A DNA stretch of 64,000 nt, taken from NCBI GenBank assembly GCA_000171835.1, contig ABHC01000013.1:104340-168339 (forward strand), given 5' to 3'. The translations under genes were made by a program, and so were the position numbers. Shown piece by piece: positions 191-50,463 of this stretch (position 1 is the first letter of the stretch; every line of letters begins with the position of its first letter). The stretch comes from an alpha proteobacterium BAL199 (lineage in GTDB: Bacteria; Pseudomonadota; Alphaproteobacteria; Thalassobaculales; Thalassobaculaceae). Under the pieces are notes generated by a model. It was given only the letters and a program-made list of their open reading frames with translations. It was not told the DNA's origin and did no database searches.

Positions 191-724
191 ATGACAAGTG
201 AGAGTTTATCGGTGGTCGACCCTGTCATGGAGGAAACCATGTCCAATACACCCGAAACCGACGTGAAGACGGAAGCCGGCTCCAGGCAGGAGCAGGCCAT
301 GGAGATCGTAAAGGTTTCCATGGCCTGGTCGTGCGGCGCGGGGCTGATCCCGATGCCGTTGCTGGACATGGCCGCGATCGCCGCGGTGCAGGTTCGCATG
401 CTCCAGAAGCTGGCGGCGTTCTACGACATTCCGTTCAAGAAGAACGTGGCCAAGTCCCTGGTGGCGTCCCTGCTTGGCGGCACCGGCGCGTTTTTGGTGG
501 CCGGCCCATTAGGCAGTCTGGTAAAGATCGTCCCGCTGGTCGGCCCGCTGGCCAGCATCGTCGTTTCGCCGGCGGCGGCAGCGGCAACGACCTACGCCGT
601 CGGCAAGGTCTTCATCCAGCACTTCGAGTCTGGCGGCACCTTTCTGAACCTCAATCCGGACGAGGTCCGCAAATATTACTATGCGGAGCGTGACAAGGCC
701 GACGGCAAGGCGGAGGCCGCCTAG
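191..724 (+). CDS. Hypothetical small protein, DUF697/YcjF-like (hydrophobic Gly/Ala-rich core, conserved ...KVFIQHFESGG...); start uncertain (191, or 227 at MEETM)
   Basis: 177-aa ORF with coding-like codon usage. The family call comes from recalled motif similarity, not a search. Confidence 0.45.
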   Translation: MTSESLSVVDPVMEETMSNTPETDVKTEAGSRQEQAMEIVKVSMAWSCGAGLIPMPLLDMAAIAAVQVRMLQKLAAFYDIPFKKNVAKSLVASLLGGTGAFLVAGPLGSLVKIVPLVGPLASIVVSPAAAAATTYAVGKVFIQHFESGGTFLNLNPDEVRKYYYAERDKADGKAEAA

Positions 725-964: not shown

Positions 965-1696
965 ATGAGTTGGATCATTCCCATTTCGCGACCGTCCGCG
1001 GCGCAGCACCGCCTCATCTGCTTTCCCTATGCCGGCGGGGGCGCGTCGATCTTTCAGCCGTGGCGTGATTTCCTGACCGACGGCATCGATCTGTTCGCCC
1101 TCCAGCCACCGGGCCGGGAGCGGCGTTTCGCGGAGCCCCCGATCGCCGACCTCCGCGCGTTGGTATCGGCCTCGCTGGACGCGCTCGCCCCCTTGGCGGA
1201 CCGGCCTCTCATCCTGTTCGGGCACAGCCTTGGGGCGATCGTCGCGTTCGAGACGGCACGGGCCCTTCAGGAACGGGGGAAGCCCGCCGCCCTGCTCATG
1301 GTTTCCGGGCGCCAGGCGCCGGATCTACCGTCGCGGCGCAGGCCGATCGCCCATCTCGCGGACGACGCCTTCATCGAGGAACTCGGCCGGCTGAACGGAA
1401 CCCCGAAGGAGGTGCTTGAAACGCCAGAGCTTATGGCGTTACTGATGCCGATGCTGCGAGCCGATTTCACCATCGCCGACACCTACCGACGACAGCCGGG
1501 CGCGCCGTTGTCGTGCCCGATCCTGGCGCTCGGGTCGGAAGACGACGAGTGGATCGACGAGCCCGGCCTCGATGCTTGGCGCCACGAGACGAACGGCGAT
1601 TTCGACATGCGGATTTTTCCGGGCGATCATTTCTATCTGAACCGCTATCTCGACCAACTGGTTCCGTTCCTGTGCGGAGCGGCGCTGAGGCACTGA
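965..1696 (+). CDS. Type II (editing) thioesterase, GrsT/TycF-like alpha/beta hydrolase
   Basis: 243 aa with N-terminal FPYAGGGASIF, nucleophile elbow GHSLGA and C-terminal GDHF, the hallmarks of the PKS/NRPS-associated TE-II family. First gene of the operon. Confidence 0.85.
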   Translation: MSWIIPISRPSAAQHRLICFPYAGGGASIFQPWRDFLTDGIDLFALQPPGRERRFAEPPIADLRALVSASLDALAPLADRPLILFGHSLGAIVAFETARALQERGKPAALLMVSGRQAPDLPSRRRPIAHLADDAFIEELGRLNGTPKEVLETPELMALLMPMLRADFTIADTYRRQPGAPLSCPILALGSEDDEWIDEPGLDAWRHETNGDFDMRIFPGDHFYLNRYLDQLVPFLCGAALRH

Positions 1697-1701: not shown

Positions 1702-2487
1702 ATGTCGAGCGCCGCACTTCAGGACGTCGATCCGGCGCCGGGCGGAGATGCCGGCTGGCCGCGGAGGGAGCCGGTGGCGGGCGTGCCGGCGCCTGGTCTT
1801 GTTCAGTGCTGGCGGATTGTGGTTTCGAGCTTGGATCCGGCGGATCTCGGCGGTTTGTCGCAGGATCTCGACCCGCTGGAACACGCGCGGGCCGGGCGGT
1901 TCCACCGGTTCGAGGATCGCCGCCGGTTCATCGCCGGGCGGGTTGGGATTCGGCGATTGTTGAGTGCCGCTTTGGGCTCGGCTCCGGTTTTGTCGAGCGA
2001 CGGTTTCGGCAAGCCGTTCTGCGCCGATCGGTCGGTTGAGTTCAACATTTCCCACAGCGGCGATGTGGTTCTGGTGGCTTTGGCGGCGGGATTTCAGGTT
2101 GGAATCGATGTGGAGCGCCAGGATCCGATTTCGGATATGGCGGCGACTTGGCGGCGGAATTTCCATCCGGGAGAGGTCGCCGAATTGGACAGATTGGACA
2201 AAGATGAGGCCCTTTTCGGCTTTTTGAGATGTTGGACACGCAAGGAAGCGGTGTCCAAGGCGCTGGGCGTCGGGCTGTCGATGGCATTGGACAGCTTCCA
2301 GGTGTCCACCCGGGCGGGAGAGCCGCCACGCCTGCTCACCCTGCCCCCGGACATGGACACCCGGTGGAGCCTGCGCGATCTCCACCCCGCAGCCGGCTAC
2401 ACAGCGGCATTTGCCGCCCCCGTCCAGGACCTGACGATCACCTGCGCAACCCTGGACCTGGGCAACGGCCGCAGGGGGCGTCCATGA
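1702..2487 (+). CDS. 4'-phosphopantetheinyl transferase, Sfp-type
   Basis: Motifs VGIDVERQDP and WTRKEAVSKALG (W/FxxKEAxxK). ATG lies 5 nt after the TE-II stop and is preceded by GAGG. The track ORF 1513 start overlaps the TE gene and was rejected. The stop TGA (2485-2487) overlaps the next gene's ATG (2484) as ATGA. Confidence 0.8.
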   Translation: MSSAALQDVDPAPGGDAGWPRREPVAGVPAPGLVQCWRIVVSSLDPADLGGLSQDLDPLEHARAGRFHRFEDRRRFIAGRVGIRRLLSAALGSAPVLSSDGFGKPFCADRSVEFNISHSGDVVLVALAAGFQVGIDVERQDPISDMAATWRRNFHPGEVAELDRLDKDEALFGFLRCWTRKEAVSKALGVGLSMALDSFQVSTRAGEPPRLLTLPPDMDTRWSLRDLHPAAGYTAAFAAPVQDLTITCATLDLGNGRRGRP

Positions 2488-4250
2488 GCGCGTCCCAGCC
2501 CCAATCACTCGCCGGCCTGCTGCTCGACCGCGCCGATCGCGCCACTGGCTCGATCACGGTGATCCAGGGCGCGGAGGCGGAGCAGGTCCGCACCCCGGCC
2601 GACCTGCGCGCCGATGCCCTGTCGGTTCTCGGATCGCTCCAGGTGCGCGGGCTTTCGCCCGGCGCCGAGGTGGTGATCTCCGTCGCCGATCCGCACGCGT
2701 TCGTCACCGCGTTCTGGGCCTGCATCCTGGGCCGGATGATCGCCATCCCGGTCCAGACGCCGACAACCGACGAACATCGCCTGAAGCTGACCCGTATCCG
2801 CGACCATCTGGGCCAGTCCTTCCTGATCACCGACCGGCCGGACCTGGCCGCGGAGACCGACGCGGCGGATATCGCCACGCTGTGCGACGGCACCAGCCCC
2901 GCCGGGACCGTCGACCGCGAAGCCGAACCGAACGACATCGCGTTCGTGCAGTTCTCCTCCGGCTCGACCGGCGCGCCCAAGGGCGTCGTCCTGCGCCATC
3001 ACCAGGTCTTGACCCACCTGAGCGATTTCGCCGCCAGCGCCCGCATGACGGCCGACGACGTGTTCCTGAGCTGGTTCCCGCTGACCCACGACATGGGTCT
3101 GATCGGCTGGCACCTGATCCCGCTGGCCTTGGGGGCGGACCAGTACCTGATGCCCACCCGGCTGTTCGTCCAGCGCCCCTCGCTGTGGTTGGCCAAGGCG
3201 AGCGCCCACCGCGCCTCGGTCCTGTGCTCCAACAATTTCGGTCTCAAGCACTTCCTGAAGCTGCTGAAGCCGGCGGTCCAGGCCGAGTGGGATCTATCGC
3301 CCGTGCGACTGCTGTTCAACGCGGCGGAACCGATCTCCGCTGATCTCTGCCTGGATTTCCAGGACCGCATGGCACCCTCCGGGCTCGCCCCGGTGGCGCT
3401 AACTCCCGGATACGGATTGGCCGAAGCCACCCTTGGCGTCTCGTTCCCCTCGCCGGGAGAGCCGCTGAAGATCCACAGCACCGACCGCCACCACCTCGGT
3501 TGGGGAGCGACGGTCCGCCCACCGCCATCGGCGCGGGACGAACGACGGCTGGTCGACCTTGGAGCGGCCATGGACGGGGTCGACATGCGCGTCGTCGACG
3601 GTGCCGGCCACATCCTGGACGACCGGGTGGTCGGCTCGGTCGAAATTCGGAGCCGGACCATGACCACCGGCTACTACCGCTCCCCGACGGCGGATGCCGG
3701 CCTGTTCGCGCCGGATGGCTGGCTGCGCACCGGCGACGCGGGTTTCCTGGACGGCGGTCGGCTCGTGCTGACCGGCCGGATCAAGGAAATCATCATCCAG
3801 GCGGGGCAGAACTACGATCCGCACGATATCGAGCGGGTGGCCGAGGAGGTCGACGGGATCGATCTCGGCAAGGTCGTGGCGTGCGGCATCGTCGGCGCCG
3901 CCGAGCAGCCCGAACTGCTTGTCATGTTCGCCCACTCCCGCGTGCCGCTTCAGGATTTCCCCACCCTGGCGCGGACTTTGCGCGAGCATCTGCTGCGCCG
4001 GGGCGGATGGCTGGTGGACCATGTGCTGCCGGTTACCAGCGTGCCGAAGACCACCAGCGGCAAGATCGAGCGATATCGGCTCGCCCAGCGGTTTCTCGAC
4101 GGCGATTTCGACGCGGTGATCGATCAACTCGCCGACTTGGGCGACCAGGGGACGGCGGAAGACGACTGGCGCCGAGCGACCGGGCGGGATCGCCGTCGCC
4201 TGCTGCTCGCCCGCCTGCGCGCCGGGGCCGAGCAGGTCATCGACACCGTG
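2484..4250 (+). other. FAAL (fatty acyl-AMP ligase) loading domain
   Basis: N-terminal AMP-binding superfamily domain followed directly by an ACP and no CoA-ligase context, the typical starter for iturin/mycosubtilin-type lipopeptides. Confidence 0.8.
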
Positions 4251-7200
4251 GGCCTGGCCCTCGACCGATCCCTGTTCGACCAGGGTCTGGACTCACGACG
4301 GGCGGTCGCCCTGCAGCGGTGGTTGGACGCCACTTTCGACGTCGATCTCCCGGTTTCGCTGGCCTTCGACAACCCCACCCTGCTCGATATCGCCAACGTC
4401 ATCGACGGTTTCGATACGGTCGGCAGGGCACCCGACGACACTGGCCGAACGCCCGAACCCTCGCCGGCCCATCCCGGCGCCGGACCGCACCGCGACGAGC
4501 CGATCGCCATCATCGGCATCGGCTGCCGGTTTCCTGGCGGCGCCGACCGGCCCGCAAGCTTCTGGCGCCTGCTGATGGCGGAGACCGATACGACGGGAGC
4601 CCTGCCCGGCGGCCGCGGACAACCGCCGGAGCCGGTGACGGGAAGCTTCCTGTCCGATGTGGCGGGGTTCGACCACCAGTTCTTTTCCATGTCGGTCCGC
4701 GAGGCCGAAGCGTTGGACCCCCAGGCCCGGCTGTTGCTCGAGGTGTGCTGGGAAGCGCTGGAGGACGGCGGTCAGGACATCCCCGCGCTCGCCGGCCAGG
4801 AGGTCGGTGTCTATGTCGGGATCGCGAACACCGACTACGCCATGGCGCAGTTCCACAGCGGCGACGGCGACAAGATTGGCCCCTATTCCTATACCGGCGT
4901 GGCACCGTCCCTGGCGGTCGGACGGGTGTCCCATGCGCTGGGCTTTCAGGGTCCGGCGATGGCGCTAGACACCGCCTGCTCGTCTTCCCTGCTGGCCGTG
5001 CATCAGGCGGTGGAGAGCCTGCGGTCGGGCGATTGCGCCATGGCGCTCGCCGGCGGGGTGAACCTGATCCTCGGCCCCGCCGGCCATCAGAGCCTGACCC
5101 ATCTGGGCGCCCTCTCGCCGACCGGCGCGTGCCGTCCCTTCGACGATCGCGCCGACGGGTACGTGCGGGGCGAAGGCTGTGGGGTCGTGGTGCTGAAGCC
5201 GCTTTCGGCGGCACTGCGCGACGGCGACGATGTGCTGGCCCTGGTGCGCTCCAGCGCCGTCAATCACGACGGCAGAAGCGGCGGGCTCACCGTGCCGAGC
5301 GGGCCGGCCCAGACCCGCGTGATCGAGCGCGCCCTTGACCGCGCGGGCCTCGGCCCCGACGGGATCGACTATGTGGAGGCCCATGGCACCGGCACGCCCC
5401 TTGGCGACCCGATCGAGATCCAGGCGCTGGACCGGGTGTTCGCGGCACAGCCTCCGGGGGACGGCAAGCTTCTGGTCGGATCGGTGAAGAGCAATATCGG
5501 ACACCTGGAAAGCGCCGCCGGGATCGCCAGTTTGATCAAGGTCTCGCTTGCCCTGCGGAACGCCCTGATCCCGCGCAGTCTGCACCACGCCACCCCGAAC
5601 CGGCACGTGGCCTGGGACGGCCTGTCGGTCGTGATCGCCGCGACTCCGACCCCTTGGCCCCGGCGCGACCGGCCGAGGCGGGCCGGGGTGAGCGCTTTCG
5701 GCTTTGCCGGAACCAACGTCCATGTGGTCCTTGAGGAAGCGCCCGACGCAGCCGCCGTCGGACCGGCGGCCGCGCCTGCCGACGGGCCCGCCGAGGGAGC
5801 CGCCGAAGGATCCGCCGAGGGATCCGCCGAGGGATCCATCCGTCTCCCGTCGCTGATGCCGCTATCCGCGGCCTGCGCGGAAGGGGTAAGGGCCCAGGCG
5901 GCGGCGTGGCTGGCCCTGGCGCAGTCGGCGCCGGACGTTTCCGGAATAACGATGGCGGCCACGGCCGCGCGGCGACGCAGTCATCTGCCGCACCGGGCGG
6001 CGATCCGTTTCGACACGCGGGCCGACTTGCTGTCGGGGCTCGAGTCCGTGGCGAAAGGGAGCGCCGCGACCGGCTGCGCGATCGGCCGGCCCCACCCGGA
6101 CCGAGTGTCGCGTCTCGCCTTCGTCTTCACCGGACAGGGATCGCAATGGGCCGGCATGGGCTCGGCGCTGATGGCGCAAGAGCCGGTGTTTCGCGAGGCG
6201 ATGGAACGCTGCGCCGCCCAGATCGACACGCTCGCCGGCGGATCGCTGTTGGACGATCTGGCCCGACCGGCCGAAACCAGTCCGCTCGATCGAACCGATC
6301 GGGCGCAGGCCGGAATTTTCACGATCCAGTACGCCCTGACCACGCTGTTGGCCCATTACGGCGTGACCCCGGACTGCGTGGTCGGCCATAGCTGCGGCGA
6401 GTTGGCGGCGTTTCAGACGGCGGGAGTGATCAGCCTGGAACAGGCGTGCCGGCTGGTCGTCGACCGGGGGGCGTGCATGGAAGCGGCGGCCGATGCGCTG
6501 GGCGAACCGGGGGCCATGGTCGCCGTCCAGGTGTCGCGCGCCGACAGTGCCGACCTGCTGGGCGATGGTCTGGAGATCGCCGCGATCAACAGTCCGAATT
6601 CGGTCGTCCTGGCCGGCCCGACCAGCGCTGTGGACGCGGCCGTCGACACCCTGTCCCACCGATCCATTCCCCATCGCCGGTTGGATGTGGCGTTCGCGTT
6701 CCACAGCCGGCAGATGGACGGGGCGGCGGTCGACTTCGCCGCCCGCGCGGGCGGGATGAAGATTGGCGCGGGCGGGATGGAGATCGGCGCGGACACCATC
6801 GCGGTCTACGCCGCCGCCTGGGGCCGCCGGATGCCGGCGGGGCCGCTGGATGACGACTATTGGCGGGCCAACCTGCGGGAACCGGTGCTGTTCGCCGACG
6901 CCGTAACGGCGATGCGGGATGACGGGACGACCCACTTTCTCGAAATCGGCCCGCATCCGAGCCTGTCCGGGCCGATGATGGAGATCCTGGAAGGGGTGGG
7001 GTCCTCGCCGGTGATCGCCGGTACCATGCGGCGCGACCAGGGACGTGACCAGGGACCCGGCCAGGGACCCGGCCACGGACGCGACGCGGTGCTCGACGGG
7101 CTCGCGGCGCTGTATGTCACCGGGTTCGACCTGCGCTGGGATCGCCTGCATCCGGCGGCGCCGGCCCTGGCGGACGCTCCGCTCTATCCGTGGCGGCGTC

Positions 7201-9047
7201 GCCGACTGTGGCCGCGGGATTTCGATCCCTGGACGCCCCGGCAGGCGACGGCCGATGCCCCGGGTCTCGACGGATTGCGATACGATCTGGTCTGGGACCA
7301 ATTGCCCGCGCCCGCCGATCGCGCCGATGGCCGGCCGGCCGCCGTCCTGCTGCTCGCTACCCCGGACAATCCGGTGGCACGCGCGTTGGCGGAACGGCTC
7401 GACGTCCCCATCCGGGACAGCCGCCGCCCGGATGCCGTCGACGCGGCCCTGAAACAGACCACCGACGCGCCGATCGTCCTGGTCCCCGACCCTGCCGGTG
7501 CCGACAGTCACCCGCCGACCGCCCAGCGCACGGCCCTCGATCTGGCCCTGCGGGTGATCGGTCATCTGTCGCGCGGTCCGGCGCCATCGGCCGCGTTTTG
7601 GATCGTCACCACGCAGACACAGGAACCTGGATTGGAGTCGCCCGGCCTGGACTCGCTGTGGGCGCTGATGCGCACCGCAACCACGGAGGATCCGGGGCTC
7701 GACGGACGCTGCCTCGAACTCGCGGCCGTCCCGACCGCTGGGGATCTGGACCTTCTGGCGCGGCTGCTGGCCGCTCCGCCCGAGGGCGAACGGGGCTTGG
7801 CGATCCGGGGGAGTGCCGCTCACGCCGCCCGCCTCGCCACCACACCGGCGCGGCCCGCCGAGCGGTCGCTCCCCGTGCGGTCGGACGCCACGTATCTTGT
7901 GACCGGCGGCTGCGGCAGCCTGGGGCTGGTGTTGAGCCGGGCGCTGGTGGATCTGGGCGCGCGGTCGGTGGTGCTGCTCGGCCGCTCCGGCGCCGATGAG
8001 GCCGCGCGGACCGCGATCGCCGAGATGGAAGCGATGGCGGTGCGGGTGCTGGTCCGCCCCTGCGACATCGCGGATCCGGCGTCCCTGGCGGCGGTGTTCG
8101 ACGAGATCGACCGCAGCCTGCCGCCGCTGGCCGGCGTGATCCACGCGGCGGGCGTGCTGGCGGATGCCGGGGTGGCGGGGCTGGACGGCGAGACCCTGGG
8201 CCGGGTCCTGGCGCCGAAGATCGACGGCGGATGGACCCTGCATCTGGCGACCCGGGCGCGGCGGCTCGACTTTTTCATCGCGCTCTCGTCGGCGGCGCTG
8301 CTGCTCGGCTCGCCGGGACAGGCGGCCTACGGTGCGGCAAACGGGTTCCTGGACGCGCTCGCCGCCTACCGCCAGCGGATCGGCCTGCCGAGCCTCAGCC
8401 TGCGGCTGGGTCTGGTGGAGGGGTCGACGATGCTGCGCCGGGCGCGCGAGGGGGGGCGGGATTTCGCCGCCGACGGCATCCGCCCGATCTCCGCCGCCCG
8501 GGTGGCCGCGGCCCTGCCGGTTCTGTGGTCCGGGGGCCGGCCGGTCGAGACTCTGCTGGACCTAGACGCCGCCGCCTGGCTCGAGCGGTATCCCGGTGCC
8601 GCGATGCGCGCGTATCTGTCGCCGCTGCTGCCCGAGACCGCGCCTGAGGAGGTGCCGGAGGAGACGATCCGGCGCCTGGGCACCGGCCCGGAGGCGCTGC
8701 GCGCGCTGACCGCCGACCTGACGGCGATCGTGGCGCGGGTCACCGGGACGCCGGCGGCGGATCTCGCCGGCGACCGTCCGCTGCGGGAGTTGGGCGTGGA
8801 CTCGCTGATGACCATGCAGATCCGGCGCGCGATCCTGAGCCGGTTCGGGCGCGACGTGCGGGTCACCGCGTTCTGGGCGCATCCCACCCTGGACCGCTTC
8901 GCCAGCCACCTCGCCGGCGAGATCGGCATCGCCATCGCCTCACCGAAGGTTGTGGACGCGAACGGCACGGATCGTGCTAAGGCTGACCCAACGGATCGCG
9001 CAGACGTGCGCCGCGCGCTCGCCGACAAATGGGACAAGTATCTGTGA
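2484..9047 (+). CDS. Loading plus first extension PKS: fatty acyl-AMP ligase (FAAL)-ACP-KS-AT-KR-ACP
   Basis: FAAL motif FVQFSSGSTGAPKGV and YRTGD-like core. ACP GLDSRRAV. KS CRFPGG...DTACSSSL...EAHGTGTPLGDPIE. AT GQGSQWAGMG...GHSCGE...AFHS (malonyl-type). KR TGGCGSLG. ACP LGVDSLM. Start is the ATGA overlap at 2484, preceded by GGGGG 6 nt upstream; track start 2229 rejected. Confidence 0.9.
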   Translation: MSASQPQSLAGLLLDRADRATGSITVIQGAEAEQVRTPADLRADALSVLGSLQVRGLSPGAEVVISVADPHAFVTAFWACILGRMIAIPVQTPTTDEHRLKLTRIRDHLGQSFLITDRPDLAAETDAADIATLCDGTSPAGTVDREAEPNDIAFVQFSSGSTGAPKGVVLRHHQVLTHLSDFAASARMTADDVFLSWFPLTHDMGLIGWHLIPLALGADQYLMPTRLFVQRPSLWLAKASAHRASVLCSNNFGLKHFLKLLKPAVQAEWDLSPVRLLFNAAEPISADLCLDFQDRMAPSGLAPVALTPGYGLAEATLGVSFPSPGEPLKIHSTDRHHLGWGATVRPPPSARDERRLVDLGAAMDGVDMRVVDGAGHILDDRVVGSVEIRSRTMTTGYYRSPTADAGLFAPDGWLRTGDAGFLDGGRLVLTGRIKEIIIQAGQNYDPHDIERVAEEVDGIDLGKVVACGIVGAAEQPELLVMFAHSRVPLQDFPTLARTLREHLLRRGGWLVDHVLPVTSVPKTTSGKIERYRLAQRFLDGDFDAVIDQLADLGDQGTAEDDWRRATGRDRRRLLLARLRAGAEQVIDTVGLALDRSLFDQGLDSRRAVALQRWLDATFDVDLPVSLAFDNPTLLDIANVIDGFDTVGRAPDDTGRTPEPSPAHPGAGPHRDEPIAIIGIGCRFPGGADRPASFWRLLMAETDTTGALPGGRGQPPEPVTGSFLSDVAGFDHQFFSMSVREAEALDPQARLLLEVCWEALEDGGQDIPALAGQEVGVYVGIANTDYAMAQFHSGDGDKIGPYSYTGVAPSLAVGRVSHALGFQGPAMALDTACSSSLLAVHQAVESLRSGDCAMALAGGVNLILGPAGHQSLTHLGALSPTGACRPFDDRADGYVRGEGCGVVVLKPLSAALRDGDDVLALVRSSAVNHDGRSGGLTVPSGPAQTRVIERALDRAGLGPDGIDYVEAHGTGTPLGDPIEIQALDRVFAAQPPGDGKLLVGSVKSNIGHLESAAGIASLIKVSLALRNALIPRSLHHATPNRHVAWDGLSVVIAATPTPWPRRDRPRRAGVSAFGFAGTNVHVVLEEAPDAAAVGPAAAPADGPAEGAAEGSAEGSAEGSIRLPSLMPLSAACAEGVRAQAAAWLALAQSAPDVSGITMAATAARRRSHLPHRAAIRFDTRADLLSGLESVAKGSAATGCAIGRPHPDRVSRLAFVFTGQGSQWAGMGSALMAQEPVFREAMERCAAQIDTLAGGSLLDDLARPAETSPLDRTDRAQAGIFTIQYALTTLLAHYGVTPDCVVGHSCGELAAFQTAGVISLEQACRLVVDRGACMEAAADALGEPGAMVAVQVSRADSADLLGDGLEIAAINSPNSVVLAGPTSAVDAAVDTLSHRSIPHRRLDVAFAFHSRQMDGAAVDFAARAGGMKIGAGGMEIGADTIAVYAAAWGRRMPAGPLDDDYWRANLREPVLFADAVTAMRDDGTTHFLEIGPHPSLSGPMMEILEGVGSSPVIAGTMRRDQGRDQGPGQGPGHGRDAVLDGLAALYVTGFDLRWDRLHPAAPALADAPLYPWRRRRLWPRDFDPWTPRQATADAPGLDGLRYDLVWDQLPAPADRADGRPAAVLLLATPDNPVARALAERLDVPIRDSRRPDAVDAALKQTTDAPIVLVPDPAGADSHPPTAQRTALDLALRVIGHLSRGPAPSAAFWIVTTQTQEPGLESPGLDSLWALMRTATTEDPGLDGRCLELAAVPTAGDLDLLARLLAAPPEGERGLAIRGSAAHAARLATTPARPAERSLPVRSDATYLVTGGCGSLGLVLSRALVDLGARSVVLLGRSGADEAARTAIAEMEAMAVRVLVRPCDIADPASLAAVFDEIDRSLPPLAGVIHAAGVLADAGVAGLDGETLGRVLAPKIDGGWTLHLATRARRLDFFIALSSAALLLGSPGQAAYGAANGFLDALAAYRQRIGLPSLSLRLGLVEGSTMLRRAREGGRDFAADGIRPISAARVAAALPVLWSGGRPVETLLDLDAAAWLERYPGAAMRAYLSPLLPETAPEEVPEETIRRLGTGPEALRALTADLTAIVARVTGTPAADLAGDRPLRELGVDSLMTMQIRRAILSRFGRDVRVTAFWAHPTLDRFASHLAGEIGIAIASPKVVDANGTDRAKADPTDRADVRRALADKWDKYL

Positions 9048-12000
9048 CGCCGCCGCAAGACCAGCAACCGGACATCCACCCGTCCCCGACCGACGAGGTC
9101 GCGGAGCTCGAGGCGGCGTTGGAGCGGTCGCTGCGGGTGATCAACCACCTGGAAGCAGCGCTGGAGCAGCGCGCCGGCGACGCCGGGACAGAGTCGCACC
9201 AACCGGTCGCCATCGTCGGCATGTCTTGCCGCTTCCCCGGCGGCGCCAACGACCCGGCCGCGTTCTGGGACCTGCTCGCCGGCGGACGCGAGGCGCGCGC
9301 CCCCATGGCGGCGGACCGCTGGACCGGCCCCGGCGCCCCGCCGCTGGGCCATTTCCTCGACCGGGTCCCCTACGGCGTCGACGACCGGGTGTTCCGGCTC
9401 TCGCCCGAGGAGATCCGCGGCCTGGACCCGCAACAGCGGCTGCTGCTCGAACTCGCCTTCGAAGCCTTCGAGGACGCCGGCTTGCCGCAAGGCCAGCTCG
9501 AAGGATCGCGCACCGGCGTGTTTCTCGGCCTGGAGAAGGCCGATTTCATCCGCGCCGGACTGTATTCCGGCGATCCCGAGCGGATCACCCCGTATACCGC
9601 CACCGGCATCGCCGGCAGTGCGGCGGCGGGACGGATCTCCTATCTGTTCGACCTGCGCGGACCCTGCCTCTCGCTCGACGCCGCCTGCGCGTCCTCCCTG
9701 GTGGCGGTCGACCAGGCCTGCGCCAGCCTGCGCCGGGGCGACTGCACCATGGCGCTGGCCGGCGCGGTCAGCCTCATGCTGGCGCCGGAGCCGTTCACGG
9801 CCCTGACCCGATTGGGCGCCCTGTCACCGGAAGGCCGCTGCAAGACCTTCTCCGCCGACGCCGACGGCTACGCCCGTGGCGAGGGCGGCGCCATCCTGGT
9901 GCTGAAACCGCTGGCGCAGGCGCAGGCCGACGGCGACCGGATCCACGGCGTGATCCTGGGCAGCGCGGTACGCCACGGCGGGCGCAGCAACGGGCTGACG
10001 GCCCCCAACATGGGCTCCCAGGAAGAGGTGATCCGAGCCGCCCTGGACGACGCCCGCATCGGCCCCGACGCGGTCGACTACCTGGAAGCGCACGGGACCG
10101 GAACGCCGCTGGGCGACCCGATCGAGATGGCGGCCGTGGAAGCGGTGTTCGCCGCGTCCAGACTCGAGGCCGGCAGCCCGCTCGCCATCGGGTCGGTCAA
10201 GACCAATATCGGCCATCTGGAAACGGCGGCGGGCGTCGCCGGGATCATCAAGGTTCTGCTGTGCCTGCGCCACGGGATGCTGCCACCGCATCTGCACTTC
10301 GAGAACCCGAGCGAGCATATCGACTGGCCGTCCCTGCCGGTGACCGTCCCGACCGAGGCCACCGCCTGGCCGTCGTCATCGCCGAGCCGGCGGCGCATCG
10401 CCGGGGTCAGCGCCTTCGGGTTCGCGGGAACCGTCGCCCATGTGGTTCTGGCAGGCGCCCCCGATGGAACCGACATCTGCGAACCGGCGACAGCCGACAC
10501 GACCGCGCTCCCCGACCGGTGCTGGCACCTGGTGACCGTCTCGGCCCGCAGCGAGGCGGCGCTGGCCGCCAATCTCGACGCGCTTGCCGCCCATGTCTCA
10601 CCCGACGACGGCCTGGGCGACGACGGCCTGGGCGACATCGCCCACACCGCCAATACCGGGCGCACGGCGTTCGAGTATCGCGCCGCCGCCGTGGCCAACG
10701 CGGCCAGCGCCCGGCCGGCGACCCTGCCGGCGACCCTGCGCGGACCGGACCTCATGAAAGGCCGATCCGGTCAAGCGGACGCCGGACAGATCGCGTTCGC
10801 GTTCACCGGCCAGGGATCGCAGTACCGGGGCATGGGCCGGGACCTTTACGCGACGTCGCCGGTGTTTCGCGACGCGCTGGATCGCTGCGCCACGCTTCTG
10901 GAACCGGAGCTGGACCGGCCGCTGATCGACCTGCTGTACGGCCCGGCGCCGGACCCGGAGGTGATCGACCGCACCGACTACGCCCAACCGGCCCTGTTCT
11001 CCGTCGGCTACGCCTTGAGTGCGCTCTGGCGATCCTGGGGCATTCACCCGGCCGTGGTGATGGGTCACAGCGTCGGCGAGATCACCGCCGCGCAGATCGC
11101 AGGCGTGTTCTCGCTGGAAGACGCGATCCGGCTGATCGCCGCGCGGGGACGCCTGGTGCAGTCGCTGACGCCGGCCGGCGCCATGGCGGCGGTCTTCGCC
11201 AACGCGGACACGGTCGCGGACCGCCTGAAGGACTTGGACGGCGGCGTTGTGATCGCCGCCCGGAACGCGCCGCGGAACACGGTCATCGCCGGCACGCCCG
11301 ACGCGGTCGCCCATGCCGTCGAGCACCTGCGCCAGGACGGGATCGACGCGCGCGCCCTGTCGGTTTCCCGCGCCTTTCACTCTCCCCTGCTGGACCCGGC
11401 GGTGGCGCCGTTCAGGGACGTGCTGGAGAGCCTGACCTACAACGCGCCGACGATCCCGCTGGTCACAAACCGCACCGGCCGGCTCGCGACCGCCAAGATC
11501 ACAACCGCCGAGATCACAACCGCCGACATCATGACCCCGGACGCCTGGTGCCGGCATCTTCTGGACCCGGTCCTGTTCGAGGACGGCGTCCGAGCCGTCG
11601 CCGAGGCCGGCATCCGGACGGTGATCGAAATCGGCCCGGCGCCGGTGTTGAGCGGTCTGGCCCGGCAGGTCGACGGATCGGACACGGCTCCGATCTGGAT
11701 GCCGTCCCTGATCGCCGCCAGCGAGGGCTGGCAACAGATGCTGTCGACCCTGGGCCAGTTGTACGTCCGGGGTGTCGATGTCGACTGGCCGGGCGTCGAC
11801 CGGGGACGGGTGCGCCGCAGGGTCGACCTGCCCACATACCGTTTCCAAAGAAACCATGCGGAGCCGCCGGCACCCCTCCCCGTTGCCCGCTCGGTCGGCG
11901 CCCTTGCTCGCACAACGCCAGAGGGCCCGGTTTCAGAGGGTCCGGTTTCAGAAGGTCCGGCATTCGACAGCGTTTCGCGCGGGTTCCAAGCCGTCACCAC

Positions 12001-15000
12001 TCTCGGCCGGGGGCTGCTGTGCCACGCCATGGAGCGGCTGGGCCTGTTCGATCGGCTGGAGGCCGCCGTCGCCCCGACCGTTGACGACCTGCGGTCCGAT
12101 CTGGGGATCGATCCCTCCTATGCCCGGCTGTTCGACGAGCTGCTGGCGATCCTGGCGCGGCACGGGGTTCTGGCGCTGGCCGAGGGTCGGGTCGTCGCGA
12201 CCGACATCCGACGCCACACATCCCCTGCCGACTCCATCCCTCCTGCCGACTCCGCGACCGTGGTGCGCGACCATCCGGATCTGGCGGCCATGGTCCGGCT
12301 GCTTGAGGTCTGCCTGGACGCCTATCCGGACGTGCTGCGGGACACCCGCAAGGCGATGGAGGTCCTGTTCCCCGGCGGGTCCATGGCGCTGGTCGAAGCG
12401 GTCTACCAGAGCGGCGACATCGCCGGTTATTTCAATCGCCTGGTCGCGGATGCGGTGCGCCAGGCCGTGACCGAGATCGGCGGCACCGGCGGGGCCGGCA
12501 TCCTGGAGATCGGCGCTGGAACCGGCGGCACCAGCCGGACGGTGCTGGCGGCCTTGGCCGAGAGGGAGACCGCCGCCCTCGCCTACCACTACACCGACAT
12601 TTCCGCCGGGTTCGTGCGTCAGGCGGAAATTCATCTGGGCGCGCGCTACCCGTTCACCCGGTTCCAGACACTCGACATCGAGCGGGATATCGCCGCTCAA
12701 GGCTGCCGGGAGGGCGGCTACGACGTGGTGCTGGCCAGCAACGTGCTGCACGCCACCCACGACATGGCCCACACCCTGGCACAGGCCGCCCGGCTGGTGC
12801 GCCCCGGCGGGCGGTTGATCATCAACGAGGTGACCCGGTCCCACGAATTCATCGGCATGACCTTCGGGCTAACGCCGGGCTGGTGGCTGTATCAGGACGC
12901 CGAGGTCCGTCAGGCCGGATCGCCGGTGCTGAGTCTGGCCAGTTGGCGCCGGATGCTGGCCGAGGCCGGTTTCGCGACGGTCGACACCCACGGATTGGAC
13001 GGCGACGACCCGGACGACCCGGTTCAGGCGGTGATCGTCGCCTATCGGGATGGCGGATCGGCGTTTGCCGCGCCGCAGGATCTGGACATCGGCGGGCACG
13101 GGGGCGCCGGCCATCGCGGCGCGCTCGAAGGGCGGCTGGTCGCCCTGGTCCAGCGGATCTCCGGCATCACCGTCAGCGATGGAGATACCGCGACCAACCT
13201 GTTCGCCCTGGGGCTCGACTCCCTGCTTCTGATGCAGATCAAGCAGGGCATGCAGGAGGAGTTCGGGGTCGAGGTCTCCATGGGACAGTTCTACAACGAG
13301 CTGTCCACCATCGGCGACCTGGTCGACCTGCTGGCGCGCCAGGTTTCGCCGGCGCCGACGGCAGCTCCGGGACCCGCTACCGGGTCGGTAGCCCAGACCG
13401 TTCCCCACGTCCCGCAGCCGGCGCCGGCGACGGCGGGCTCTCGGGACGCCATTCTGCGCGTGGTGGAGCAACAACTCGAGCTCATGCGCCAACAGCTCGC
13501 GTTGCTCGGTGGCGACCCGGGCGCGGTGGCTCTTCCCGCAATGCCGGCAACGGTGCCGACCGCGCCAGCGCCCCCCCTCGCAGCTCCCCACCCTGCCACA
13601 TTTGCATCTGCGCCGGCGGCATCTGCGCCGGGTGCATCTGCACCGGCGGCATCGGTCCAGGGGCCGATCGATGGCGCGTTGAGCCCGGCGCAGCAGCGCC
13701 TGATCGACGATCTGGTCCGGCGCTACACCGCCAAGACGGCGCGCTCCAAGGACGCGATGGCGCGTGCGCGCCCGGTGCTGGCGGACTGGATCGCGACCGT
13801 CGGGTTCCGCCCGGAGCTGAAGGAGATGATCTACCCGATCGTCTCGGTCGCATCCCAGGGCAGTCACGTCACCGATCTTGACGGCAACGACTATGTCGAC
13901 CTGGCCATGGGCTTCGGGGTCGAGTTCTTCGGCCACCGCCCGCCCTTCGTGGTCGACGCCGTGCGCGAGCGGCTGGACCGAGGGTTCGAGCTGGCGACCC
14001 AGTCGGATCTGGCCGAGGAGACGGCCCGGATGGTCGCCGAGTTGACCGGCGTCGAGCGGGTGACGTTCAGCAATACCGGAACCGAAGCGGTGATGACCGC
14101 GTTCCGGCTGGCGCGCACGGTGACCGGGCGCAAGCGCATCGTCCATTTCAAGGGCGCGTTCCACGGCTTCTATGACGGGGTCATGGCCTATGGCGGGCGC
14201 ACCGGCTCCACGCCCATGGTGCCGGGCATCCTGCAGAACCAAATCGACGACGTGCTGGTCCTGGAATACGGCTCCGACGAGGCGCTGCGGGTGATCGAAG
14301 CCGAGGCGGACAGCCTGGCCGGCGTGCTGGTCGAGCCGGTGCAGAGCCGCAATCCCGACCTGCAACCGCGCGACTTCCTGCACGCCCTGCGGCGGATCAC
14401 CGAGAGCCACGGCGTGGCCCTGATCTTCGACGAGCTGATCACCGGTTTCCGCGTCCATCCCGGCGGCGCCCAGGCGCATTTCGGGGTCACCGCCGACATC
14501 GTCACCTACGGCAAGATGATCGGCGGCGGCATGCCGATCAGCGTGATCGCCGGCAAGGCGCGGTTCCTCGACGCGATCGACGGCGGCGACTGGCGGTACG
14601 GCGACGGCTCGCGGCCGGCGGCGACCATGACGTTCTTCGGCGGAACCTTCTGCCGCCACCCGCTGTCGATGGCCGCCGCCCACGCCACCCTGCGGTTCAT
14701 GGCCGACCATGGCCCCGCATTGCAGGAGCGGGTCAACGCCCGCACCGAAGCGCTTGCCGGGCGCCTGAATGCCCTGTTCGGCGACCGCCGCATTCCGTTC
14801 CGGGTGGCCTGGTTCGCCTCGCAGTTCCAGATCCGCCAGGCGATGGCCGGCGGCGGGGGCGAGACGATCCAGTCGCTGGAGCTGGCGGTCTTCTTCTTCC
14901 TGCTGATGGAGCGGGGCATCTACACCTGGGAGCGTCGGGTCTGCTTCCTGTCGATCGCCCATGACGACGGCGATCTCGACCGCATCGTGTCGGCGGTGGC

Positions 15001-18000
15001 GGATAGCCTGGACGCGATGCTGGCCGCCGGGTTCTTCGGCGGCCGGTCGGCGCCCCCGGTCGCGCTGACCCCCGGCCAGAAGGACATGGCGTTCCGGGCG
15101 GCCCAGGGGACCGCCGCGTCGACCGCCTATGCCGAACCATTGGTGCTCGACCTGGAGGGGCCGCTGGACATCGCCGCCCTGCAGGGCGCGTTGGACGCGG
15201 TGATCGCCCGCCACGACGCGTTGCGGGTGGTGCGCATCGCCGACGACGCCGCCGAGATCGCGCCGAAGATATCGGTGGCGATCCGGCGCACCCTCGACAC
15301 CAGCCGGGACGCCGGCGACTGGCTGTCCGCCCTGTGCCGCCAGCCGTTCGATCTCGACGCCGGCCCCTTGATCCGCGCCCACCTGCTGGAGCTGGCGCCG
15401 GAGCGTTTCCGGTTCGCGCTGGTGCTGCATCACCTGATCGCCGACGGCTGGTCGGCCGGCGTCGTGCTGCAGGAGCTGGCCCGGATCTACAGCGCGCTGG
15501 CCGCCCGCGCGCCGCTCCCCGAGCTGCCGGCGCCGGTGTCCTTCGCGGCATACCAGGCCTGGTATGCCGATCGGCTGACCCGCCGCCGCGCGACGGTGCG
15601 CGGCTACTGGCGCCGACAGCTACGCGACGTGCCGCCGCTGGATCTGCCGGCCGACGTCCTCGCGCCCTCGCGCACCTCCGGGCGGGGACAGCGCCTGCGC
15701 CGGGAAATCGCGGGCGACACCACCACGGCGATCCGGGCGGCGGCGCGGGCCCACCACACCTCGTCCTTCGCGATCCTGCTCGGGACCTGGACGGCGCTGC
15801 TGTTCCGGCTGTCCGGCTCCCGGCGGATCACCGTCGGCGTCGCGAGCGCCGGGCAGTCCGCCATGGGCAAGGACACGCTGGTCGGCCAATGCTCCTCGCT
15901 GCTGCCGCTGATCGTGGAGGTGGATCCGGCGCTGTCCTGGACGGCGCTGCTGGAGCGGCTCACCGCAGCGCTCGGCGAACTGTGGGACCATCAGGACGTG
16001 CGCCCGGAAGACGTGATCGGGGACGATCCAGACCTGGCCCTGCCGCCCCTGCGGGCGTCGTTCAATCAGGACCGCGATCCGGGCGGATGCCGCTTCCACG
16101 GCCTGTCCGCCGCTTTGGCGCCCGCCGAAATCGGCTTCGTCAAGCACGCGCTGGCCCTGAACGCGATCGAGTCCGACGGTCGGATGCTGCTCGATTTCGA
16201 CTACGACACCGATCTGTTCGATCCCGCCACGGTGAGCGACTGGGCCGACGGGTATCGCGCCCTGCTCGACGCCCTGCTCCTCGCACCCGACGCGCCGATC
16301 ATCGCCGACGGCCCCGCCCCAGCGAGCGGGCCCGCAGGCCGCGCCCGGACCGCCGACTCCCCCCCGCTCGGCATCGGCGCCGACGCTTTCGACCGTCACG
16401 TCGAGGCCTGGATCGGGGCGGCGGAAATCGCCGCCGGCGACCGTCTGCACATCTCCGACGCGGCCGCGTCGGCACTTGGCGCCGACGGGGCGGCGGCGTT
16501 GCGTACGGCCGGGGCCACGGTCCTGCCGGCGGGCGCGCAGCGTCAGCCCGGAGACGGCGACATCCTGCTGGCCCGCGAGGCGTCCGGGATGCCGACAAGC
16601 GCCAAGATGCTGCTGGTCGATGACGGCACCTTGCTGGACATCACCCTCGCCGACCTGTTGCGGACCCGACCGGAGACCAGACTTTTCGTCGTCGCCCAGC
16701 CCACCGGACTGCCGGTATCGCTCGGCGTGGAGCGGGTGGACGCGGCGCGCGAGGAGTGGCGCCGTCACGGGCTGAGGGCGCCGTCGCCCTCTCTGAATGT
16801 CGATGTCCGGGACACCGACGGCCGGCCGGTGCTCAGCGGCGTCGCCGGAAACCTCCACCTCGGCCCGACATCGACCGGCGAGGCGGCGCGACGCCGGTCC
16901 GACGGGACGATCGAGCTGCTTGGTCCGGCCGATGCGATCGTTCACCACCGAAGCCACCCGGTGCGCGCCTCCACCGTGGCCGCAATCCTGCTCGCCCACC
17001 CCTCGGTGCGCGATGTCGCCCTCGACCCCGCCGCCGCGAGCTTCTCGGTGCAGGCCGCCATCGGCGACAGCGGTGTCGACGCGCAAACCCTGCGGCGATA
17101 CCTGCTGCGCCATCTGCCGGTGTGGAGTGTGCCCGGACGTGTCGTCGTGGTGCCGCAGTTTCCGGCCCCACCGGAAACCCCGGCCGAGACCACCCCGGAA
17201 GTCCGGGCCGACGGCCCGCAAACCGCTGAAATCATAACCCTGTTCCGCCATGTGCTGGGCGGCGTCGATGTCGCGGCAGACGATGACTTTTTCGATCTTG
17301 GCGGCGATTCCCTGGCGGCGACCCGCCTGGTCAACCAGGTCCGCACGGTGTTCGGCGTGGATCTGGCCATGCGCTCGGTGTTCGAAGCGCCGACACCCGC
17401 CCTGCTCGCCGCCCGGCTTGGGGACGCGGAACGGTCGACCCTGGCGCCGATCACCGCCGGCCGCCGTCCCGATCGACTTCCGCTGTCCCCGGCGCAACGC
17501 CGATTGTGGTTCCTGGAGCAGTTCGAGAGCACGGCCACCGCCTATGTCATGACGGTCGCCGTGCGTCTGAACGGTCCCCTGGACGTGTCCGCGCTGGAGC
17601 GGGCCCTGAACGCCGTCTTGGCGCGTCACGAAAGCCTGCGCACCCGCTTTCCGACGACCGACGACGAACCATGGCAGGAGATCCTTCCCGCCGCCGCTGC
17701 CCGTCTGACGTTGGCGCCGGTCGACACCACCGACGCGGCCCTGTTGCCAACTCTGGCGGCGCTCCAGGCGACGGACGCACGGTTCGATCTGGCCAACGAT
17801 CTGCCGGTTCGCGCGATACTCTACCGCCTGTCGGCCGATCGCCATGTCCTGGTCCTGCGGGTCCACCATATCGCCGGCGACGAGGAATCCTTGCGCCCCC
17901 TGGCCCAAGACCTTCGCCGCGCCTATTCGGATGCCTCCGCCCTGACGCCCTTGAGCCTCCAGGTCGCCGATGTTGCCCTATGGCAGCGGGATCAGACCTA

Positions 18001-33211: not shown

Positions 33212-33950
33212 ATGAGCAGACTGACGACCTCCCCCGCGCGCGCCGACCTTGCCCGCTATACCGGACACGGGTTCGATGCCCACCGCGCGTTCTGGCAGGA
33301 CCGGACCGCCGCCTGCGTGGACCCGGTGGATCTCGGGGCTGATGGAACCTCCCCGGCAACCCACGCGCATCCGTTCTCCGCGGAGGCCGCCGGGACCCTA
33401 GCGCGGATTTCCGGCGGCCAGGAGCTCGGCCGGCTCGTGGTGGTCACGGCGGCAGTCGCGCGGGTGTTGGCCGCGTGGGGCGGGGGACAGTCGATCCTGG
33501 TCGACACACCACCGCTCCCGACCTCCGCCCATGCCGGCGAACCGGTGGCGATGGTGCTGCCGCTGATGCTCACCGGCACCGTGCGTGATCTGCTGACCGC
33601 GACCCGCGCGGTGATCGCCGATGCCTATGGTCATCAGGACTTCCCGATCCGCCGCTTGTCCGACCCCGCCTTGCCCGAAGCCCGGATGATGATCGCCAGC
33701 CCGGCTCTCCACGACGTGCCGGCGGACAACGAAGCGCGGGACCTGACGCTCACGCTGGACCTGACCCTCACGCTGGAGCAGACCGGCCTGCGGCTGCGCC
33801 ACCGGCTGGCCCCCTGGCGCGCCGCCGCCTTCGCCGCCCAGATCGACCGGGCCGTGGCCGGTTTCGCGGAGACCGACCGCCCGCTCGCCGACATCGACCT
33901 GCTGTCGGCCGGGGAACAGGCCACGGCCCTGGCGTTCGGACGGGGCCCGG
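33212..33950 (+). other. N-truncated condensation-domain half (C*), directly following the complete terminal C domain of the preceding protein
   Basis: Alignment by eye to C-domain C-terminal subdomain motifs; the N-terminal lobe carrying the catalytic histidine motif is missing. Confidence 0.5.
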
Positions 33951-49724: not shown

Positions 49725-50273
49725 ATGTCAGTTTCCCCTAGACCGGTGCGGCCACCGGGTTTGATGGCCCTGGCGATCATGACTCTGGTGTCGATCCTGG
49801 CCGTCGGCGTGCCCGGCACTCCGGCTGGCGCCTTCACCCTGCCGAAGGATAGCCACGTCGGCCTTCCGCCCGATTCGGTTCCCAACGACGGCACTTTCAC
49901 CGGAGAGGGATCCGGCATCTACATCATGGTCCAGGACAAGCGGGAGGTGGGCAACGCCAACGATCCCGACTCGATCGTCTGCGCGGTGGACATCGCGGTC
50001 TACAACCTCACCGTCGACGATGTGGCCGAACTGGTACTGCAGGTCACCTATCTCGGCCCCAACGGCGAGAGAATGACGTCGTTGACCCGGTTTCAGGACC
50101 TGCGCACCGATCTGCCGCAGATCGATCTCCTCAACCGCAGCACGGTCCCCAATTGTCGCAATCTGTCGATTTCCGCCGTACCGCTGCTGTGCCGGACCGC
50201 CGACAATTTCGATTGCCGCGATCAGGTCAAGGGGATCCGAAGCGGTACCTTCAAGCCGGTCGACGTGATGTGA
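49725..50273 (+). CDS. Hypothetical secreted protein (predicted Sec signal peptide; 4 Cys in mature part)
   Basis: The ORF track gives a TTG at 49689. ATG 49725 (MSVSPRPVRPPGLMALAIMTLVSILAVGVPGTPAGA) gives a canonical n/h/c signal peptide; 49764 is also possible. No family recognised. Confidence 0.45.
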   Translation: MSVSPRPVRPPGLMALAIMTLVSILAVGVPGTPAGAFTLPKDSHVGLPPDSVPNDGTFTGEGSGIYIMVQDKREVGNANDPDSIVCAVDIAVYNLTVDDVAELVLQVTYLGPNGERMTSLTRFQDLRTDLPQIDLLNRSTVPNCRNLSISAVPLLCRTADNFDCRDQVKGIRSGTFKPVDVM

Positions 50274-50295
50274 CTGCCGGACGCGGGAGTTCCTG

Positions 50296-50463
50296 ATGAT
50301 CAATTTCGCCCTGGTCGGTTATGTCTGCGTGGCGCTCCTGCTCGCCTTTCTCGGCCGCCGCACGCGGCTGGGACCGATCCTGATCTTCCTGATCTCGATC
50401 CTTCTCACCCCGGTATTCTCGATGATCTATCTGATCGTTACCCGCTTCGAATTCCGTAAATGA
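50296..50463 (+). CDS. Unannotated 55-aa two-TM membrane peptide (MINFALVGYVCVALLLAFLGRRTRLGPILIFLISILLTPVFSMIYLIVTRFEFRK), translationally coupled to the ABC exporter
   Basis: GGGAG Shine-Dalgarno 7 nt upstream of the ATG. The stop TGA (50461-50463) overlaps the ABC transporter ATG (50460) as ATGA. Below the 60-aa cutoff of the track. Confidence 0.45.
   Translation: MINFALVGYVCVALLLAFLGRRTRLGPILIFLISILLTPVFSMIYLIVTRFEFRK

Follow-up and report, generated by a model that had tools for sequence, protein, structure and literature searches.

A predicted 3-amino-5-hydroxy-2-methyl acyl initiation cassette in an orphan polyketide-peptide hybrid cluster of Thalassobaculum sp. BAL199

Background

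Which acyl unit would the hybrid assembly line of a marine alphaproteobacterium place at the head of its peptide? The question is raised by a 64,000-nucleotide stretch of BAL199 DNA (GenBank assembly GCA_000171835.1, contig ABHC01000013.1, positions 104,340 to 168,339 of the forward strand), called the window below and numbered from its first letter, in which four giant open reading frames (ORF1 to ORF4) encode a polyketide synthase (PKS) and a nonribosomal peptide synthetase (NRPS). The strain is a Baltic Sea isolate, now named Thalassobaculum sp. BAL199 (PMC12175539). A sequence-only reading of the locus had proposed that its PKS part builds a 3-amino-2-methyl-5-hydroxy fatty acyl starter. 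The balance of the evidence gathered here leans, if modestly, towards a reading in which positions 2484-15034 initiate the product of an orphan lipopeptide cluster of hybrid PKS-NRPS type by making a 3-amino-5-hydroxy-2-methyl acyl unit.

Results and discussion

Domain order of the initiation cassette

Pfam domain calls resolved ORF1 and the N-terminal part of ORF2 into a loading domain resembling fatty acyl-AMP ligases (FAAL) with its acyl carrier protein (ACP), a first module made of ketosynthase (KS), acyltransferase (AT), ketoreductase (KR) and ACP, and a second module made of KS, AT, C-methyltransferase (cMT), ACP and aminotransferase (AMT), with a condensation (C) domain directly after (E 1e-17 to 1e-96; Table 1). 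The order FAAL-ACP / KS-AT-KR-ACP / KS-AT-cMT-ACP-AMT, first read from the letters alone, was thereby borne out. The interval then given (2484-15000) spans loader through AMT, the AMT alignment actually ending at 15034, and the motifs cited at the time (GHSxGE, AFHS, LEIGAGTGGTS and YGKMIGGG) were all found where they had been placed. The calls within the cassette are strong matches, not chance motifs; the identity and order of the domains, their intact catalytic motifs and their conservation across relatives are direct observations. Both KS domains displayed the Cys-His-His residues and all three ACPs the serine, as read from the sequence.

The true start of ORF1 was the ATG at 2484 (2229 in the list of ORFs), which overlaps the stop codon of an upstream phosphopantetheinyl transferase (PPTase) gene. 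Independent gene calls on metagenome copies gave an ORF1 product of 2187 amino acids (aa), in agreement with this start. The four giant ORFs are co-directional and uninterrupted, with 0 stops in 15,719 codons.

First PKS module

Both ATs were predicted to be malonyl-type, as the sequence-only reading had held. The motif HAFH, as against YASH, is diagnostic of malonyl-type ATs (PMC7327777). The Phe of this xAFH motif was present in AT1 (FAFHS) and AT2 (RAFHS), the corresponding columns in the orthologues from six related loci (described below) reading HAFH, YAFH, FAFH or RAFH; no methylmalonyl signature appeared on alignment, and both domains carried the RTDxAQ motif upstream. Overall similarity of AT1 to solved ATs could not split malonyl from methylmalonyl types, and the motif rule was therefore used for specificity. 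In AT2, GHSVGE follows the malonyl-type GHS[VILFAM]GE rule, and the best solved match was the CurL AT (3.8e-78), whose HAFHS aligned to RAFHS and which we take to be malonyl-specific.

KR1 was predicted to be an active B-type ketoreductase. Aligned to solved KRs, it kept the TGGCGSLG NADPH-binding motif and the catalytic Lys, Ser, Tyr and Asn, all conserved in the orthologues. B-type KRs have Asp as the third residue of the LDD motif and no A-type Trp (the rules of Caffrey and of Keatinge-Clay). HAAGVLADAG of KR1 aligned with HAAGVLDDAT, so that LAD stood at the LDD position (LED, LQD or LAD in the orthologues), and the position of the A-type Trp was read as Leu; inspection of the stereochemistry motif thus gave the B-type assignment.

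The 280 residues between AT1 and the catalytic part of the KR matched, on alignment, the structural subdomain seen in AmphB and EryKR1-type KRs. A hidden dehydratase (DH) was sought: neither a PS-DH Pfam match nor an HxxxGxxxxP motif was found in the cassette or in any orthologue, and the Pfam domain calls gave no enoylreductase (ER) in the cassette. The first module is KR-only, as had been claimed.

Second PKS module

The cMT appeared competent by sequence, which upholds the methylation step of the earlier proposal. Its best solved matches were the cMTs of DisA (6CCA, 8e-62) and CurJ (5THY, 1.6e-50), with which the S-adenosylmethionine (SAM) motif LEIGAGTGGTS, the His of NVLHAT and the Glu of NEVT aligned, His and Glu being the catalytic dyad of such methyltransferases (PMC7327777). 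All these motifs were kept in the six orthologues.

From its sequence, the AMT is a class-III aminotransferase of the MycA type embedded in the PKS, predicted to transaminate the ACP-bound beta-ketoacyl chain. It aligned to the solved MycA AMT (6KFM) over query residues 3-445 of 447 (E 1.2e-116), TYGKMIGGG matching TYGKIIGGG, so that the pyridoxal phosphate (PLP) lysine placed earlier in YGKMIGGG belongs to a full-length homologue; this Lys was conserved in the six orthologues. In ORF2 the domain (aa 1604-1916 and beyond) sits between the ACP (1369-1435) and the C domain (2012-2424), with no carrier between.

The predicted acyl unit and its starter

Which substrates are used, whether methylation comes before amination, how many methyls are added, the stereochemistry and the mode of release are all inferred from these domains. 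The FAAL-like domain would take a carboxylic acid, of which a fatty acid is the likeliest kind, adenylate it and load it onto ACP0. Module 1 would add one malonyl unit, and the B-type KR would reduce the beta-keto group to a hydroxyl, expected to be retained because no DH is present (R-CH(OH)-CH2-CO-S-ACP1). Module 2 would add a second malonyl unit, the cMT would methylate C2 with SAM, and the PLP-dependent AMT would turn the C3 ketone into an amine, leaving R-CH(OH)-CH2-CH(NH2)-CH(CH3)-CO-S-ACP2, a 3-amino-5-hydroxy-2-methyl-alkanoyl thioester. The C1 domain would join the carboxyl of this beta-amino acyl unit to the opening amino acid of a peptide some ten residues long, and a terminal thioesterase (TE) would release the product, probably with ring closure at the free 3-NH2, the iturin mode, or else at the 5-OH. 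The 3-amino-2-methyl-5-hydroxy pattern follows from collinearity of the domain order. Collinearity and intact motifs together support the beta-amino, alpha-methyl, delta-hydroxy acyl unit first proposed, as an in-silico prediction, neither a loss of cMT or KR catalytic residues nor a methylmalonyl AT having come to light.

Several points weigh against this unit. AT1 reads GHSCGE, whose unusual Cys is not the Gln of GHSQGE but lies outside the usual GHS[VILFAM]GE set; the same position reads GHSVGE in the orthologues L021 and L022. The closest solved cMT is that of DisA, ahead of the monomethylating one of CurJ. The loader scored under the NCBIfam cut-offs for FAALs, and its closest solved structures were StsA (2e-75) and McyG (3e-64), ahead of true FAALs (1e-54 to 1e-55). 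The module that follows C1 and would accept the lipid unit carries a degenerate adenylation (A) domain. Text searches combining BAL199 or Thalassobaculum with lipopeptide or biosynthetic gene cluster gave no study of the cluster, and no paper in the literature searched linked BAL199 to a product. Collinearity rules are, moreover, sometimes broken.

The ranking of the cMT bears on the number of methyl groups. A single C2 methyl is what McyE, a characterised cMT-ACP-AMT module, gives in Adda. A cMT acting twice, with a 3-amino-2,2-dimethyl-5-hydroxy acyl unit as the outcome, is quite unlikely here: although the methyltransferase of disorazole synthesis (DisA) is described as gem-dimethylating, overall similarity does not predict methyl count and no diagnostic residues are known (PMC7327777).

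For the predicted 3-amino-5-hydroxy-2-methyl unit, what kind of side chain it would bear depends on the loader, which carries the FAAL-typical motifs HDMGL and YGLAEAT. Cores A5 and A7 lie 99 aa apart in it, compared with 77-90 aa for the window's eight NRPS A domains and 81 aa for GrsA, and these roughly 18 extra residues match the FAAL-specific insertion described as a concept in PMC11837247. Among NCBIfam models the top scores went to the fatty-acid ligase PRK07768, with 304.9 bits against a cut-off of 572, and to the FAAL model PRK09192, with 289.7 bits against one of 600, neither reaching its threshold. ACP0 with GLDSRR follows directly, as a FAAL's own ACP would, and the motif is kept in the orthologues. 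Given the motifs, the insertion and the top models, a fatty acid is the most likely starter. The word "fatty" in the original proposal thus stands in part: the loader has FAAL hallmarks, and the fatty nature of the acid is deduced from them.

A starter of another kind, namely an aryl-alkyl, branched or otherwise functionalised acid leaving a side chain that is short or aromatic, in the manner of Adda or Ahoa, is unlikely. It would fit the resemblance of the loader to StsA and to McyG, which take alpha-ketoisocaproate and phenylpropanoids, respectively, as well as the sub-threshold FAAL scores. The A domain of StsA selects an alpha-keto acid (alpha-ketoisocaproate; StsA and FAAL structure entries identified from PMC11253843 and PMC11837247), and beta-amino polyketide residues are sorted in a 2026 preprint according to just these three starter strategies (PMC13252402). 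Against such a starter stand the FAAL-typical motifs and the insertion that sets the loader apart from NRPS A domains, and the Asp of its A4 motif (HDMGL), which is Ile in StsA and Val in McyG on alignment. The loading module has no KR, and no genes for starter biosynthesis lie within 4.7 kb upstream or downstream.

The peptide part and the release of the product

Beyond the predicted acyl unit, the remaining NRPS is ordered C-A-T three times, C-T, C-A-T and C in ORF2, a C remnant followed by A(N-MT)-T-E in ORF3, and C-A-T three times, E and TE in ORF4 (T, thiolation carrier; E, epimerisation domain; N-MT, N-methyltransferase). The specificity codes of the A domains correspond, in order, to Asn, Val, Gln, Gly, Tyr, Gly, DVHCGGLVEK and Tyr, and DVHCGGLVEK (second A domain of ORF4, 42699-44267, peptide position 9) matched no assignable specificity code. 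The Tyr-type A domain of ORF3 has a methyltransferase inserted between A8 and A10 (35447-35662), and its module is predicted to yield N-Me-Tyr. The predicted peptide has about ten residues, ...Asn-Val-Gln-?-Gly-D-NMeTyr-Gly-?-D-Tyr. A terminal "C-TE" of ORF4 was considered as an odd release module and rejected, its motifs being those of an ordinary E domain.

The junction between lipid and peptide may depart from the canonical scheme. In NRPS module 1 the A remnant gave no Pfam match, and its residues ~124-292 could be aligned with the C-terminal region of A domains from the same cluster, at E values as low as 1e-11. This gap is shared by the Acidisphaera relative and the metagenome relatives L021 and L022, and is therefore not recent decay. 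The second, catalytic His of the C1 motif HHxxxDG is intact in BAL199 and Acidisphaera, and is Pro, Lys or Leu in the more distant L021, L022 and L023; the junction may not be a canonical condensation in all family members. A C-T module devoid of A domain also lies in the middle of ORF2 (27188-28678, aa 6054-6550), and L021 has an additional A-less module (aa ~2921-3351 of its ORF2 homologue). The window yielded neither a stand-alone A domain nor an MbtH gene, and the A-less modules must therefore be assumed to be loaded in trans or to share A domains. The start of ORF3 (33212-33991) holds about 260 residues that gave no Pfam match and show a weak likeness to a C domain, namely to its C-terminal half.

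These defects raise the possibility that the cluster is silent or decaying, or works non-collinearly by module skipping or stuttering, in which case the predicted unit would not arise in that form. The degenerate A domain, the A-less C-T module and the C remnant of ORF3 would all agree with it, as would the location of the cluster in an IS-rich, lower-GC region (IS, insertion sequence). The stop-free giant ORFs, the intact state of every PKS catalytic motif and the conservation of the degenerate features in distant relatives, which speaks for design and not for recent decay, make this highly improbable.

The acyl unit would offer two nucleophiles to the releasing domain, 3-NH2 and 5-OH. It is very unlikely that the 5-OH is not kept free, be it as the nucleophile of a macrolactonisation or by acylation, glycosylation or sulfation through enzymes encoded elsewhere. 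The window holds no tailoring genes and cannot by itself decide the matter, but the iturin ring is closed by the 3-NH2, and no glycosyl-, sulfo- or acyltransferase was seen in or beside the cluster or in the related loci inspected.

Relatives of the cassette

The same gene pair was found in six other loci: Acidisphaera sp. S103, metagenome-assembled genomes (MAGs) of Roseomonas, Rhodopila and Thermoanaerobaculia (Acidobacteriota), and two metagenome contigs. A FAAL-ACP-KS-AT-KR-ACP gene of 2138-2319 aa is followed in these loci by a KS-AT-cMT-ACP-AMT-C... gene of up to ~7500 aa, usually accompanied by genes for DUF697, type II thioesterase (TEII), PPTase, ABC exporter and SPFH/Band_7 proteins. 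Identity to BAL199 ranged from 39 to 63%, and all the listed catalytic motifs of the cassette were conserved in all six; such conservation at this identity indicates that every cassette domain is under purifying selection.

In an exhaustive search of 1.84 billion representatives, only about 10 of the best 150 matches span cMT, ACP and AMT in one stretch, most covering ACP-AMT only. None of ten protein clusters looked up from the cMT-ACP-AMT matches bore a functional name. A word-indexed protein search returned almost only cMT-bearing PKSs lacking an AMT, without informative names, and a plasmid collection held no record with cMT and AMT together. The nearest relatives found come from Acetobacteraceae, Acidobacteriota and metagenomes, and all are uncharacterised proteins. 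A full-text search gave no report of a 3-amino-5-hydroxy-2-methyl acid, within open-access text only and with chemical names that vary, which is weak evidence that the combination is undescribed so far.

It is plausible, rather than probable, that these loci form an undescribed lipopeptide cluster family, horizontally spread over Rhodospirillales, Acetobacteraceae, Acidobacteriota and uncultured bacteria. Its products would start with an unreported 3-amino-5-hydroxy-2-methyl- (or 2,2-dimethyl-) alkanoic acid, its conserved dead A domain and A-less modules would be loaded in trans or by a neighbouring A domain, and the BAL199 product could cause amoeba lysis.

Flanking genes and island character

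Table 1 Coordinates of the assembly-line domains and neighbouring genes in the window (aa, residues of the encoding ORF product)
Feature	Position	Strand	Evidence and motifs
DUF697	191-724		Accompanies the cluster also in distant taxa
TEII, BAL199_07648	965-1696	+	Pfam Thioesterase 5.9e-50; exact protein EDP63589.1
Sfp-type 4'-phosphopantetheinyl transferase, 261 aa	1702-2487	+	ACPS 4.7e-19, AASDHPPT_N; stop overlaps the PKS ATG
ORF1	2484-9047	+	FAAL-like loader-ACP-KS-AT-KR-ACP
FAAL-like loading adenylation domain	2502-4130	+	AMP-binding 4e-42; HDMGL, YGLAEAT; ~18-aa insertion
ACP0, loading carrier	4191-4418	+	PP-binding (two in ORF1, 4.6e-26); ACP_SdgA_C at aa 671-725; Ser in GLDSRR
KS1	4497-5585	+	Pfam 1.1e-78 and 3.9e-41; DTACSS, HGTGT, NIGHLE
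AT1, predicted malonyl-type	6120-7046	+	Pfam 2.8e-64; RTDRAQ; GHSCGE 6384-6401; FAFHS 6693-6707
KR1, structural and catalytic subdomains, predicted active, B-type	7263-8420	+	Pfam 5.1e-58; alignment to solved KRs
ACP1	8715-8912	+	PP-binding aa 2163-2228; GVDSLM
ORF2	9029-33199	+	KS-AT-cMT-ACP-AMT, then NRPS
KS2	9200-10303	+	Pfam 1.5e-70 and 2.6e-42; DAACASS, EAHGTGT, NIGHLE
AT2, predicted malonyl-type	10784-11761	+	Pfam 3.4e-61; RTDYAQPALF; GHSVGE 11063-11080; RAFHS 11369-11383
cMT	12038-13060	+	Methyltransf_12 5.8e-17; LEIGAGTGGTS 12503-12535; NVLHAT His; NEVT Glu
ACP2	13133-13333	+	PP-binding 1.4e-30, aa 1369-1435; GLDSLL
PLP-dependent AMT domain	13706-15034	+	Aminotran_3 1.1e-54; Lys codon 14513-14515 in TYGKMIGGG
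C1, would receive the beta-amino acyl chain	15062-16300	+	Pfam Condensation 2.8e-96, aa 2012-2424; HHLIADG 15428-15448
Degenerate A-domain remnant, NRPS module 1	16301-17227	+	ORF2 aa 2425-2733; no A3, A8, A10 motifs
T1 carrier	17228-17419	+	PP-binding 9.7e-16; LGGDSL
Rest of NRPS (ORF2 remainder, ORF3, ORF4)	17420-49655	+	Pfam on chunks
ORF3	33212-38137	+	NRPS
ORF4	38148-49655	+	NRPS
Cyclic-peptide export ABC transporter, BAL199_07693	50460-52100	+	TIGR01194 346.5 bits (cut-off 286.2); exact protein EDP63598.1
SPFH/Band_7 membrane protein	52100-53494		Accompanies the cluster also in distant taxa
MoCoBD_2 fragment (molybdopterin-binding oxidoreductase C-terminus)	53758-53889	-	3.6e-12; beside the IS5-like element, looks truncated
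IS5-like DDE transposase	53983-55089
IS21 istB/istA	55561-57866
ShlB/FhaC-type two-partner-secretion transporter gene	59518-61761	-
Mutator-family transposase	62046-63323

The cluster is followed by two small ORFs, for a secreted protein and a 55-aa membrane peptide, and the 4.7 kb upstream hold hypothetical genes only; the TEII gene adjoins the cluster in L021 too. The DUF697, cyclic-peptide exporter and SPFH/Band_7 genes may serve in export of, or self-protection against, a membrane-active product.

GC content was 69-74% across the cluster (4000-48000) and 63-66% in its flanks (1-2000 and 50000-64000). With this contrast, the three IS elements downstream and the relatives in Acetobacteraceae and Acidobacteriota, the cluster looks like a horizontally acquired island.

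The exact ABC transporter and TEII proteins of BAL199 were recorded in 48 and 39 metagenome-collection blocks, respectively (ENA, JGI, Logan); either BAL199 or its island is widespread, or it recurs as an organism of laboratories or mesocosms.

BAL199 is reported to lyse Acanthamoeba polyphaga at a high bacteria:protist ratio and to alter the coloration of Euglena, with no agent named (PMC12175539). A lipopeptide from the cluster would be a candidate agent of the amoeba lysis.

Comparison with known systems

Beta-amino polyketide residue classes and their starter strategies have been summarised (PMC13252402). If the predicted unit is made, it would lengthen the list of such residues by one, and BAL199 would provide a culturable, sequenced marine strain for AMT-containing initiation outside Bacillus and cyanobacteria. 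The understanding of such assembly lines would be left unchanged: every step follows established rules, and the prediction is sound but routine. What it adds is a cassette that marks a conserved cluster family spanning several phyla.

The cluster is not a member of the iturin family and is iturin-like at the AMT-C junction. The FAAL-ACP ... ACP-AMT-C logic is that of MycA (mycosubtilin/iturin), to whose AMT the BAL199 domain is homologous over its full length, and Asn is the predicted substrate of the first NRPS module that adenylates, in keeping with iturin composition. MycA, however, extends the chain by one PKS step only, lacks both a KR module and a cMT, and yields an unsubstituted 3-amino fatty acid on a heptapeptide, whereas BAL199 has two extensions, a KR, a cMT and about ten NRPS modules.

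Among proteobacterial proteins, the AMT comes closest, at 52% identity, to that of the Ralstonia solanacearum megaplasmid synthetase, presumably the ralsolamycin/ralstonin synthetase. This system likewise starts with a FAAL (FAAL-ACP-KS-AT-ACP-AMT) and has a cyclic-peptide ABC exporter alongside, but it has one PKS module only, without cMT or KR module, a luciferase-like monooxygenase after the AMT (Pfam 1.7e-48) and an MbtH gene of the kind that was not found in the BAL199 window. The puwainaphycin synthetase can be grouped with the Ralstonia system as a related FAAL-type initiation.

The hydroxyl has its counterpart in cyanobacterial-type residues of the nostophycin kind: in Ahoa of nostophycin, Ahda of scytonemin A and Athmu of pahayokolide, a module with a KR only, preceding the AMT module, supplies the C5 hydroxyl. 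BAL199 shares this KR-only module ahead of the AMT module and the predicted 3-amino group with a C5 hydroxyl. In those systems, AMT and monooxygenase lead to a 2-OH and the starters are aromatic or keto acids, whereas in BAL199 the cMT would lead to a 2-methyl and Pfam gave no oxygenase domain.

The methyl group, in turn, recalls Adda. McyE is ordered KS-AT-cMT-ACP-AMT and then C, uses a malonyl extender and installs a SAM-derived C2 methyl. Module 2 of BAL199 shows the same KS-AT-cMT-ACP-AMT-C order by Pfam, a likeness to McyE/NdaF in domain order, and the loader resembles the A domain of McyG, as seen above. The AMT of McyE makes the beta-amino acid in the last step of Adda synthesis (PMC2885083). 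Adda differs from the BAL199 unit in its phenylpropanoid starter and in the dehydrating penultimate module that gives a 4,5-double bond; BAL199 has a KR only, with the 5-OH predicted to be kept, and FAAL motifs. The claim that the substitution pattern is distinct from Adda-type units therefore survives for the 5-OH in place of the 4,5-ene and for the alkyl starter, and not for the 2-methyl-3-amino pattern, which is that of Adda itself, nor for the module order, which is also that of McyE. Module 2 probably works like McyE; it is not filed as a McyE/NdaF member, its nearest relatives found being the uncharacterised proteins named above.

If the prediction holds, the N-terminal residue would join two patterns so far known only apart from each other, the 2-methyl-3-amino one of Adda and the 3-amino-5-hydroxy one of Ahoa. 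The cassette itself is a recombination of known pieces, the cMT and AMT of McyE and the KR-only module that precedes the AMT module in nostophycin.

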